Assembly: GCF_003018255.1 (NCBI RefSeq)
Contig: NZ_CP027440.1
Origin: Escherichia coli
GTDB lineage: Bacteria; Pseudomonadota; Gammaproteobacteria; Enterobacterales; Enterobacteriaceae
DNA length: 64,000 nucleotides
Strand: one strand, 5' to 3'
Position numbers: made by a program. This document shows, one piece after another, positions 59,701 to 62,700 of the stretch; positions within the stretch are counted from its first letter, which is position 1; every line of letters begins with the position of its first letter.

Positions 59701-62700
59701 AATTACACAGTCTTGAAAAACGCTTCTCTACGCGGCTGAAAATTGATGACGATGCCCTCGCTCGCCTGGTTTCCTGTGCATGGCCTGGCAACGATTTTGA
59801 ACTTTACAGCGTCATCGAGAATCTTGCTCTGAGTAGTGATAACGGGCGCATTCGCGTCAGTGATTTACCTGAACATCTCTTTACCGAGCAGGCGACAGAT
59901 GATGTCAGCGCCACTCGCCTTTCCACCAGTCTGTCATTTGCGGAAGTTGAAAAAGAGGCAATTATTAACGCAGCCCAGGTCACAGGCGGTCGCATTCAGG
60001 AAATGTCGGCTTTACTTGGAATCGGCCGCACTACGCTGTGGCGGAAAATGAAGCAACATGGCATTGATGCAGGGCAGTTTAAGCGCCGTGGATAGCGGGA
60101 GAGTATGTACTTTCCCGCTATGAATTGCTAATTAATAGCGACCATGACTGCCGTGATTTGGTCCACCATTTGAAGGTGGCATTGGCTTACCGGAGGGCGC
60201 AGGACCACGAGGGCCATCGCTGTGGCGGTGATGATGGTGGGGAACACAAGCACTTAACAGGCTCGCAAAGACAATTGCTAACAGGCTGAAGGTAAATGTT
60301 TTTTTCATGACAAACTCTTGAACGGTTAATGCACTGTGATTGTTATCACATAAAAGGCACATTGTTAATATTGCCAGGAGTCTGATTATGATTTTCGATA
60401 ACTCAGAATTGAAAGAAGCCGCGTAGCAGGCGTAAAAAAGCCATTATGTGCGACTCACATAATGGCTCATTATTAACCGTCAGGGTATTACGTGGAATTT
60501 AGACGTTGAACAGGAAGTTCATCACATCGCCATCTTTAACGATGTAATCTTTACCTTCTGCACGCATTTTGCCTGCTTCTTTCGCGCCTTGTTCACCTTT
60601 GTAAGTGATGAAATCTTCAAACGAGATAGTCTGTGCGCGGATAAAGCCTTTTTCGAAATCGGTATGGATTTTGCCAGCCGCTTGCGGTGCAGTTGCGCCG
60701 ACGGGGATGGTCCATGCGCGCACTTCTTTCACCCCAGCGGTGAAGTAAGTTTGCAGGTTCAGCAGTTTATAACCGGCACGGATCACACGGTTCAGGCCCG
60801 GCTCTTCCAGTCCCAGTTCCTGCATAAACTCTTCACGTTCTTCATCGTCCAGTTCGGCAATGTCTGCTTCAACAGCTGCACAAACCGGAACCACAACAGA
60901 ACCTTCTTTCGCCGCGATTTCACGCACCTGGTCAAGATACGGGTTGTTTTCAAAACCGTCTTCGTTGACGTTGGCGATGTACATCGTCGGTTTCAGCGTC
61001 AGGAAGCTCAGGTAACGAATAGCCGCTTTTTCTTCTGCGCTTAAATCCAGCGCGCGCAGCATGCCCGCGTTTTCCAGCTGTGGAAGGCATTTTTCCAGTA
61101 CTGCCAGTTCGGCTTTCGCGTCTTTATCGCCGCCTTTGGCTTTCTTCTGTACGCGGTGAATCGCGCGCTCGCAGGTGTCGAGATCCGCCAGTGCCAGTTC
61201 GGTATTGATAACTTCAATATCGTCCGCCGGGTTAACTTTACCGGAAACGTGAATGATATTGTCATTCTCAAAGCAGCGAACAACGTGGCCGATCGCTTCG
61301 GTTTCACGAATGTTGGTCAGGAACTGGTTACCCAGACCTTCACCTTTCGACGCGCCCTTTACCAGACCGGCGATATCGACAAATTCCATGGTAGTGGGAA
61401 GCGTACGCTGCGGTTTTACGATTTCAGCCAGTTGATCCAGGCGAGGGTCAGGCATTGGTACGACGCCCGTGTTCGGCTCAATGGTACAGAATGGAAAGTT
61501 GGCCGCTTCAATACCGGCTTTGGTCAGCGCGTTGAACAGGGTAGATTTCCCGACGTTGGGCAAACCGACGATACCGCATTTGAATCCCATGATTTAAATC
61601 ACCTTAATATCTTAATAATCAACCTGTTATTGCTAACAGATTGCAGAAATGGAAATAACTTTGCCTATTATACACGGCACTCGGCAAAAATGCCGCAGAC
61701 AACGACTTATTGCGCTTTAAAGGCGTGCAATCGGTTCGTTGCTTTGGTCAAGCCATCTGTAAACCATATTTCAGTACAACGTGCCGCTTCGTCGATGGCT
61801 TCATCAATTAACTTCTGTTCACTAACAGGCGGTTTGCCTAACACAAAACCGACAACTTTATTTTTATCGCCTGGATGACCAATTCCGATGCGTAAACGGT
61901 GAAAGTTAGGGTTATTACCCAATTTACTGATGATGTCTTTCAGTCCATTGTGACCACCATGGCCACCGCCCAACTTAAATTTGGCGACGCCAGGAGGCAG
62001 ATCCAGTTCGTCGTGGGCCACCAGAATCTCGTCCGGATTAATGCGGAAAAAACTGGCCATCGCCGCAACGGCTTTGCCGCTGAGATTCATAAATGTAGTC
62101 GGGACTAACAGGCGGACATCTTCGCCTCCAAGGGTGACTCGCGAAGTATAACCAAAGAATTTAGCCTCTTCGCGCAGCGGAGCGCGCAATCGCTCTGCCA
62201 GTAAGTCAACGAACCAGGCACCAGCATTATGTCGCGTTGCGGCGTATTCAGCGCCGGGGTTCGCCAGGCCGACAATCAATTTAATCGTCACGTTTTTTTG
62301 TCCTGAGTGTGTACATAACTGGCGCGTAGTTTACTGTTTGCGGCCCCGCTTGACAAAAAACTGCGTATCAAATGCAGATAACGCAATAATTGCCTAAGTG
62401 GACTATTAGAAAGTCAAGGTGTTCAGGCGTTTATTTGTAAAGTTTTGTTGAAATAAGGGTTGTAATTGTGATCACGCCCGCACATAACCCACAGGGTGTT
62501 GTCTATACTTTACACATAAGGAAGAGGGGTATTCCCTGTTACAACCCAGAAAGTTCCGGAGGTGACATATGAAACGCAAAAACGCTTCGTTACTCGGTAA
62601 CGTGCTCATGGGGTTGGGTCTGGTGGTAATGGTGGTCGGCGTGGGGTATTCAATCCTCAACCAGTTACCACAGTTTAATATGCCCCAGTATTTCGCACAT

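Follow-up and report, generated by a model that had tools for sequence, protein, structure and literature searches.

What occupies the place of the autotransporter gene ycgV in those Escherichia coli that lack it? The question is raised by the interval between dhaR and ychF in a 64,000-nucleotide stretch of one E. coli genome (assembly GCF_003018255.1, contig NZ_CP027440.1), referred to below as the window, where a spacer of 403 bp (60096-60498) separates two genes that in K-12 lie 3735 bp apart, with ycgV (2868 bp, 955 amino acids) between them. An earlier note on this DNA had reported that ycgV is missing and that about 400 bp remain, which the comparison with K-12 bears out, and had pointed to a 58-amino-acid open reading frame (ORF) with a lipobox-like signal, the motif HHHHRH and a Pro/Gly-rich tail, which we likewise find; it saw in this ORF either a genuine small metal-binding lipoprotein or a scar. 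Comparison of alleles and species makes it likely that the small ORF is a real protein-coding gene for a small exported lipoprotein. The ORF and its two convergent neighbors are arranged as follows.

58176..60095, plus strand: dhaR, the left flank, its product ending in ...KRRG where the small ORF is present and in ...KRRV where ycgV is

60308..60132, minus strand: the small ORF, 58 codons plus stop, a predicted prolipoprotein, found both in the ORF list and in the RefSeq annotation

60499..61590, minus strand: ychF, the right flank

The 58-amino-acid product, MKKTFTFSLLAIVFASLLSACVPHHHHRHSDGPRGPAPSGKPMPPSNGGPNHGSHGRY, is identical to RefSeq WP_001311636.1, a 'hypothetical protein' that is annotated in JNE23-011, whose spacer is 100% identical to that of the window, and in Nissle 1917. 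The frame can also be read from an ATG further upstream, at 60362, to give 76 amino acids, but we prefer the shorter form because the upstream ATG has no Shine-Dalgarno sequence, would add an acidic leader before the signal peptide, and is followed by a second codon that varies between C, Q and R.

The evidence for a gene comes from the pattern of substitutions. The window and Nissle 1917 encode the same protein despite a DNA difference of about 5%, and the synonymous and non-synonymous changes that separate the window from its relatives number 3 and 0 for Nissle, 6 and 2 for Escherichia sp. E1V33, 12 and 2 for E. whittamii, and 9 and 1 for E. marmotae. Between species, the ratio of non-synonymous to synonymous substitution rates (dN/dS) is 0.02-0.14 for the small ORF and 0.05-0.10 for dhaR, while the synonymous rate (dS) of the small ORF, 0.08-0.47, is of the same order as that of the flanking ychF and dhaR, which fits long vertical residence. 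When all six frames were compared, the annotated frame had the lowest dN/dS (0.04-0.09), the antisense frame with the same wobble positions gave 0.10-0.32, and the other four ranged from 0.6 to 3.9. Across ten alleles, variable sites at codon positions 1, 2 and 3 number 4, 5 and 15 (p = 0.01), and events counted by eye over the aligned alleles came to about 14 synonymous against about 8 non-synonymous, well below neutrality. One in-frame 6-nt indel is all that separates the 58-amino-acid form from a 60-amino-acid form, and intact forms are each found on at least 1000 contigs, whereas frameshifted forms occur on 1-3. Four Escherichia species keep the small ORF in place and in frame, and the purifying selection acting on it matches that on dhaR in strength.

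Of the 5426 complete E. coli genomes, 1296 carry the 403-bp segment, nearly always at full length and with 90-99% identity, and these carriers include Nissle 1917 as well as O25b:H4-ST131 and O6:K2:H1 strains; most other E. coli have ycgV at the locus. Fetching the locus through DhaR, with one genome per species, we found the small ORF intact and in the same synteny (ychF, ORF, dhaR) in E. whittamii and Escherichia sp. E1V33, and as the 60-amino-acid form in the same order in E. marmotae (including HT073016), where UniRef names the copies 'Lipoprotein'. Conservation of the ORF where ycgV is absent, which the earlier note had proposed as a check, is thus seen in nearly a quarter of the E. coli genomes and in three other Escherichia species. 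In sp. MOD1-EC7003, SCPM-O-B-8794 and E. albertii the spacer is only 94-170 bp long and contains the ychF terminator, and in Citrobacter unrelated genes lie between dhaR and ychF, contents so different that the interval must be regarded as a variable spot. A word-indexed search of 5.8 billion proteins and an exhaustive HMMER search of 1.84 billion representatives returned no relatives outside the gene's own cluster; one extra match (P0013) was a spurious tandem-repeat translation and was discarded. Neither Pfam nor NCBIfam has a family for the 58-amino-acid product, Pfam giving no hit to an autotransporter domain and only a sub-threshold match to DUF6769 (14.6 bits, cut-off 27), and Rfam has none for the spacer at E<=1. 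Within the reach of these searches, the gene is restricted to Escherichia, and on comparative grounds the segment is better described as an old alternative allele at the ycgV locus than as a recent deletion scar.

The predicted product begins as an exported lipoprotein precursor would, with two elements that can be read directly from the ORF.

60246..60308, minus strand: signal peptide MKKTFTFSLLAIVFASLLSA and lipobox Cys21, codons 1-21, with L-S-A-C at the lipobox and Val at +2

60222..60239, minus strand: His cluster HHHHRH, codons 24-29, at the start of the mature peptide

The N-terminus MKK is followed by TFTFSLLAIVFASLL, which places K2 and K3 within the first 7 residues and an uncharged hydrophobic stretch behind them, and the lipobox L18-S19-A20-C21, with its Cys within positions 15-35, satisfies a PROSITE PS51257-type rule applied as a regular expression. 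Residues L17-C21 do not change among 11 variants drawn from 4 species, so the lipoprotein signal named in the earlier note holds up both as a pattern match and as a conserved element, and the identification of the product as a lipoprotein is supported by these sequence rules. The same variants show no change at H25-H27 and H29, almost none at H24, and none across the tail stretch K41-S54. The 38 mature residues include 8 Pro, 7 His (four of them consecutive) and 7 Gly; AlphaFold2 places a helix at residues 3-20 only and leaves residues 21-58 without secondary structure (predicted local distance difference test, pLDDT, 56-64), and the mature tail is predicted to be disordered and basic. A search of the PDB matched only recombinant His-tag leaders. 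Under the Lol sorting rule the residue at +2 decides outer-membrane sorting, with Asp at +2 as the exception; because this residue is Val rather than Asp, outer-membrane localization is predicted. The precursor would be exported by Sec, then lipidated and cleaved at Cys21 (Lgt/LspA/Lnt), and Lol would deliver the lipoprotein to the inner leaflet of the outer membrane, leaving the 37-residue tail that follows the Cys in the periplasm.

Around the ORF, the spacer has several predicted elements, listed here from the ychF side to the dhaR side.

60434..60468, minus strand: ychF intrinsic terminator, a 13-bp stem followed by U6 (RNA fold -20 kcal/mol, z = -4.2)

60339..60368, minus strand: sigma-70-like promoter from a consensus scan, with -35 TTAACA at 60368-60363, an 18-nt spacer and -10 AACAAT at 60344-60339

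60335..60350, no strand assigned: CRP-type core, a perfect TGTGA-N6-TCACA palindrome, TGTGATTGTTATCACA, overlapping the predicted -10

60315..60319, minus strand: Shine-Dalgarno-like AAGAG, 6 nt 5′ of the start codon (ATG at 60308) and unchanged in every allele and species aligned

60092..60121, no strand assigned: stable hairpin lying between the stop codons of dhaR and the small ORF, which converge here; neither strand has a U-tract

Taken as a whole, the spacer probably forms a self-contained minus-strand unit that runs from the ychF terminator through promoter, Shine-Dalgarno sequence and 58-codon ORF to the hairpin. The ychF terminator hairpin is also present in Escherichia species without the small ORF, and in the window 62 nt separate it from the promoter-like site. 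The least variable part of the spacer is the 60 nt from the -35 to the ATG, with 5 of 60 positions variable, compared with 15 of 58 third positions in the ORF and a fraction of 0.26-0.33 in the outer flanks. The CRP core is the only match in the window, where 0.09 would be expected by chance, and E. coli, E1V33, E. whittamii and E. marmotae all carry it without change. As the core overlaps the predicted -10, bound CRP-cAMP (cyclic AMP) should act as a repressor, and transcription of the small ORF is, judging from this site, probably catabolite-controlled; for a predicted promoter-like site on the plus strand, the center of the core falls at about -56 or -57, compared with activating positions such as -41.5 and -61.5. 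The hairpin at 60092..60121, which is shared with the end of dhaR, folds at -20.9 kcal/mol on the plus strand and -16.5 kcal/mol on the minus strand (z about -6), and in E1V33, E. whittamii and E. marmotae the stem persists although the sequence has changed.

Several observations weigh against a functional lipoprotein gene, or against a metal-related role for it. The gene is missing from roughly three quarters of E. coli and from three further Escherichia species, which makes it dispensable. Disrupted alleles occur sporadically, for example in CUVET19-1704, where the start codon is lost, and as frameshift variants, and the selection tests cover only 174 nt and a handful of lineages. Nothing relevant was found in the literature on WP_001311636.1, on its peptide, or on ribosome profiling (Ribo-seq) in Nissle. 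Upstream of the small ORF, a Zur box is not above chance, its core being matched only with 3 mismatches (5 found, 2.4 expected), and there is no Fur box at 3 or fewer mismatches. As a positive control, the same Zur scan recovered a perfect Zur-box core, TGTTATAATATAACA, at 29527-29541, about 35 nt upstream of pliG (about 29091-29492, minus strand). As to the sites of disruption, an A7 run in ATGAAAAAAACA (minus strand; plus-strand T6 at 60300-60305 plus 60299) directly follows the start codon; the change in CUVET19-1704 is a 2-nt deletion at the start codon, and rare frameshifts are also seen at the C4 run before the His codons.

Where such a gene could have come from is suggested by a single genome, HH45 (NZ_CP116411), the only one of the 5426 with a dhaR-ychF spacer of 539 bp, a mosaic with K-12-like ends. 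This spacer contains ycgV fragments corresponding to K-12 locus positions 5171-5240, 5683-5803 and 6462-6519, with 7107-7221 next to ychF, together with a disrupted small-ORF segment about 85-90% identical to the window, in which the changes are mostly non-synonymous, and, in addition, a 42-nt C-rich stretch. In HH45, ycgV codons ~249-259 are joined to codons ~400-427, and the window is collinear with that junction, so that its small-ORF region can be divided into two parts.

60209..60317, minus strand: ycgV-collinear stretch, 9 nt upstream plus codons 1-33, opposite K-12 ycgV codons 248-259 and 399-428 (passenger domain)

60096..60208, minus strand: segment S1, codons 34-58, stop and 3′ flank, shared with HH45

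Aligned with a K-12 composite of those ycgV codons, the 109 nt of 60317-60209 reach a score of 16.5, against 5.4±2.2 for shuffled sequences and 4.7±2.1 for random two-piece ycgV composites (0 of 2000 in each case). The corresponding E. marmotae and E. whittamii sequences also show an excess over dinucleotide shuffles, with 0-5 per 1000 doing as well, and the frames of the small ORF and ycgV coincide at the anchor points GTC, ACC, GCG-AGC-CTG and GAT-GG. This similarity is significant only with gap-tolerant scoring and is gone under strict gap penalties. On these alignments, the chance that debris of the ycgV passenger domain gave rise to the 5′ two thirds of the gene is close to even. If it did, codons 1-32, with the start, signal peptide, lipobox and His cluster, would come from passenger pieces around codons ~250-259 and ~400-427, joined by a deletion and reshaped by small indels, and a separate 3′ part would have been added; the assembled product would then have come under selection and persisted in E. 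coli as an alternative allele to intact ycgV. We put this history forward tentatively, at a little under an even chance: a gene pieced together from a broken autotransporter, then kept under strong purifying selection in no fewer than four Escherichia species, and an old allele beside ycgV.

A different origin has to be weighed at a likelihood that also falls somewhat short of even, namely that the small-ORF allele is unrelated to ycgV, that HH45 is a recombinant of both allele classes, and that the similarity is chance or microhomology. When the spacer is compared with the K-12 ycgV locus by standard blastn or local alignment, nothing rises above chance, and the same is true of alignment with strict gap penalties; tblastn of YcgV against the spacer finds no match. 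Segment S1 is without a ycgV counterpart, as its local alignment to the K-12 ycgV locus has a z of about 0, and a distant blastn search of the 5426 E. coli genomes matched only small-ORF alleles. Among the informative sites in HH45, 33 equal K-12 and 22 equal the small-ORF allele, with none unique; because each site equals one parent and the flanks are K-12-like, HH45 is best read as a recombinant, and no further intermediates of its kind were found in the protein collection or in the Joint Genome Institute (JGI) metagenomes. Moreover, ycgV was at the locus in none of the other Escherichia species retrieved (one genome per species), so an origin from ycgV needs either long coexistence of the alleles or transfer between lineages. 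Speaking against an unrelated origin, the window, E. marmotae and E. whittamii sequences beat nearly all shuffles and random composites under gap-tolerant scoring, the parental states in HH45 alternate every 5-20 nt, a pattern that is not easily explained and that is hard to obtain without real pairing, and the two frames coincide at the anchor points. Two candidate sources for S1 were rejected: it is not an in-register continuation of the ycgV homology (28% identity), and an origin from a Pro-rich linker had as its sole tblastn match one with E ~1, which is not evidence.

Returning to descent from ycgV, the earlier note had asked whether the ORF overlaps a remnant of ycgV in a different frame. 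An overlap is suggested, as two ycgV fragments seem to run collinear with the 5′ 100 nt, but the frame at the anchors is the same and not a different one. With similarity in frame at the anchors and an ORF under selection, 'scar' and 'gene' are not exclusive descriptions.

As to what a lipoprotein of this kind may do, the most likely function, which we propose tentatively, would be metal binding by the His cluster at the outer membrane, a proposal drawn solely from the composition and conservation of the tail. The cluster, next to the lipid anchor, could chelate a divalent metal (Ni, Zn, Cu or Co) and buffer it or pass it on. Alternatively, the product could be a real lipoprotein whose tail, instead of binding metal, serves an envelope machine or sensor as tether or partner, as in small disordered lipoproteins such as LptM. 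We regard this as a serious rival, though on balance less likely than not. It agrees with the lack of a metal-regulator box upstream, with a Pro/Gly-rich tail predicted to be disordered, and with conservation of the whole tail beyond the histidines (K41-S54). A weak NCBIfam match to the LptM signal and mature-start model points the same way, but it stays below threshold (13.9 bits against a cut-off of 27.7) and is restricted to the signal peptide; in addition, the conserved HHHHRH beside the anchor is the most distinctive feature of the product, and the neighboring genes suggest no partner.

The two remaining explanations deny that there is a lipoprotein gene. It is very improbable that the ORF has no function and is a scar, with a frame that happens to be open in what remains of a lost ycgV and was annotated for that openness alone. 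This reading can draw on the 5′ 100 nt being plausibly ycgV debris, on the rare disrupted alleles, and on inconsistent RefSeq annotation, since M-17 and A32 carry the intact ORF unannotated. Chance debris would not be expected to show interspecies counts of 9-14 synonymous against 1-2 non-synonymous changes with the lowest dN/dS of six in the annotated frame, a frame that survives a 6-nt indel and an ORF that stays intact across a dS of 0.2-0.47, or an invariant promoter and Shine-Dalgarno sequence, and by these comparisons the scar is close to refuted. Of the two options in the earlier note, then, the genuine gene stands (synteny in four species, dN/dS of 0.02-0.14, frame kept) and the mere scar does not. 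A conserved non-coding element (a 3′ untranslated region or terminator of dhaR or ychF, or a small RNA) or an antisense plus-strand ORF of 54 codons (60125..60289) is just as remote, for despite stable hairpins on both sides of the small ORF and a promoter-like site on the plus strand (60365-60392), substitutions cluster at third codon positions of the minus-strand frame, no Rfam family matches, and the 54-codon ORF is rejected by a dN/dS of 1.8-3.9 in its frame.

By blastn, similarity between the window and K-12 is lost at 60088 and comes back exactly at 60499, the ychF stop. The C-terminus of DhaR depends on the allele, ...KRRG with the small ORF and ...KRRV with ycgV and in HH45, which places the allele boundary inside the last dhaR codons. 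The spacer and its edges are 100% identical to JNE23-011, and the remaining window is 99.5-100% identical to it, except for the first 2.8 kb, which are arranged differently. On the other side, the 3′ 900 nt of ychF (60499-61400) are only 91-96% identical to both K-12 and Nissle, with 98-100% further on, and parts of them match the Escherichia genome that carries the label E. coli SCPM-O-B-8794 at 97.5-99% identity; by sequence identity, this looks like a segment imported from another Escherichia lineage. Ancient haplotype divergence extending into the flanks was rejected, as the flanks of Nissle and K-12 differ in an ordinary way (96.5-100% identity), and on the same comparison the divergent ychF of the window is a separate import, unlinked to the small-ORF allele.

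Elsewhere in the window, two other autotransporter loci are degraded, as the earlier note had said.

21631-24273: autotransporter adhesin pseudogene with an internal stop (ECIAI39_1904 family), 100% identical to a RefSeq-annotated sequence

25590-25934: autotransporter beta-barrel fragment, 100% identical to a RefSeq-annotated sequence

Positions ~1-13600 carry prophage tail genes (tail assembly, gpJ, Lom, tail fibre) followed by DUF2971, DUF4236 and DUF3800 genes, with an icd fragment at about 13438-13605. By the annotation of a near-identical genome, a truncated hemolysin E (hlyE) fragment lies at ~31503-31901 and a C-terminally truncated cvrA at ~41395-43065. Between ymgE and treA, ~46026-50000 holds genes for a TonB-dependent receptor, ModD, an S-adenosylmethionine (SAM)-dependent methyltransferase and an ABC (ATP-binding cassette) transporter, a cluster that K-12 presumably does not have at this place.

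The small-ORF gene is uncharacterized and known only under the annotations 'hypothetical protein' or 'Lipoprotein'. It is present in clinically important B2 lineages (ST131, strains resembling uropathogenic E. coli, and Nissle 1917) and absent from K-12, and has therefore escaped small-protein work on laboratory strains; it is among the few small ORFs of unannotated function with a clear coding signal from comparative data alone. Should its His cluster bind metal, the product would represent a minimal metal ligand anchored by lipid to the outer membrane. An origin from ycgV, if true, would make the gene a compact and datable case of a functional gene made from the debris of another, and with the precursor ycgV still segregating in the same species, gene birth would be directly testable.

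Compared with known systems, the gene passes the sequence-level tests for small lipoproteins, while it belongs to no curated family and is not an autotransporter. LptM/YifL and the entericidins EcnA/EcnB are small outer-membrane lipoproteins of Enterobacteriaceae with disordered mature parts, and the predicted product shares with them a length in the range of ~40-70 amino acids, a Sec/signal peptidase II signal with lipobox, no Asp at +2 and a short unstructured mature peptide; unlike them, it has a His-rich tail, and there is no sequence relationship. Nor is it a member of the LptM equivalog NF047847 of NCBIfam, whose sub-threshold match covers residues 1-21 only. His-rich metal-capturing segments are known from the ZinT N-terminus, the ZnuA loop, H. 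pylori Hpn and the SlyD C-terminal tail, and like these the product carries a His cluster in a flexible segment, here predicted to be exposed to the periplasm, with 7 His in 38 residues; it differs in having no homology to them, a predicted lipid anchor, no folded domain and no metal-regulator box upstream.

With YcgV, the AIDA-type autotransporter adhesin of K-12, the small-ORF product shares position and strand, and the 5′ 100 nt of its gene appear collinear with ycgV and in frame at the anchors. It is otherwise unlike YcgV, having 58 rather than 955 amino acids and neither the Pertactin (PF03212) nor the Autotransporter beta-domain (PF03797) that YcgV possesses, and the DNA similarity is visible under gap-tolerant scoring only. 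The closest concept is that of taxonomically restricted, or orphan, genes born from non-coding or degraded sequence. Like them, this gene is confined to one genus, short, compositionally simple, disordered and without homologues, with a plausible precursor that can be identified; unlike them, its putative source is in-frame debris of another gene and not intergenic DNA, and its product is already under strong purifying selection across species.

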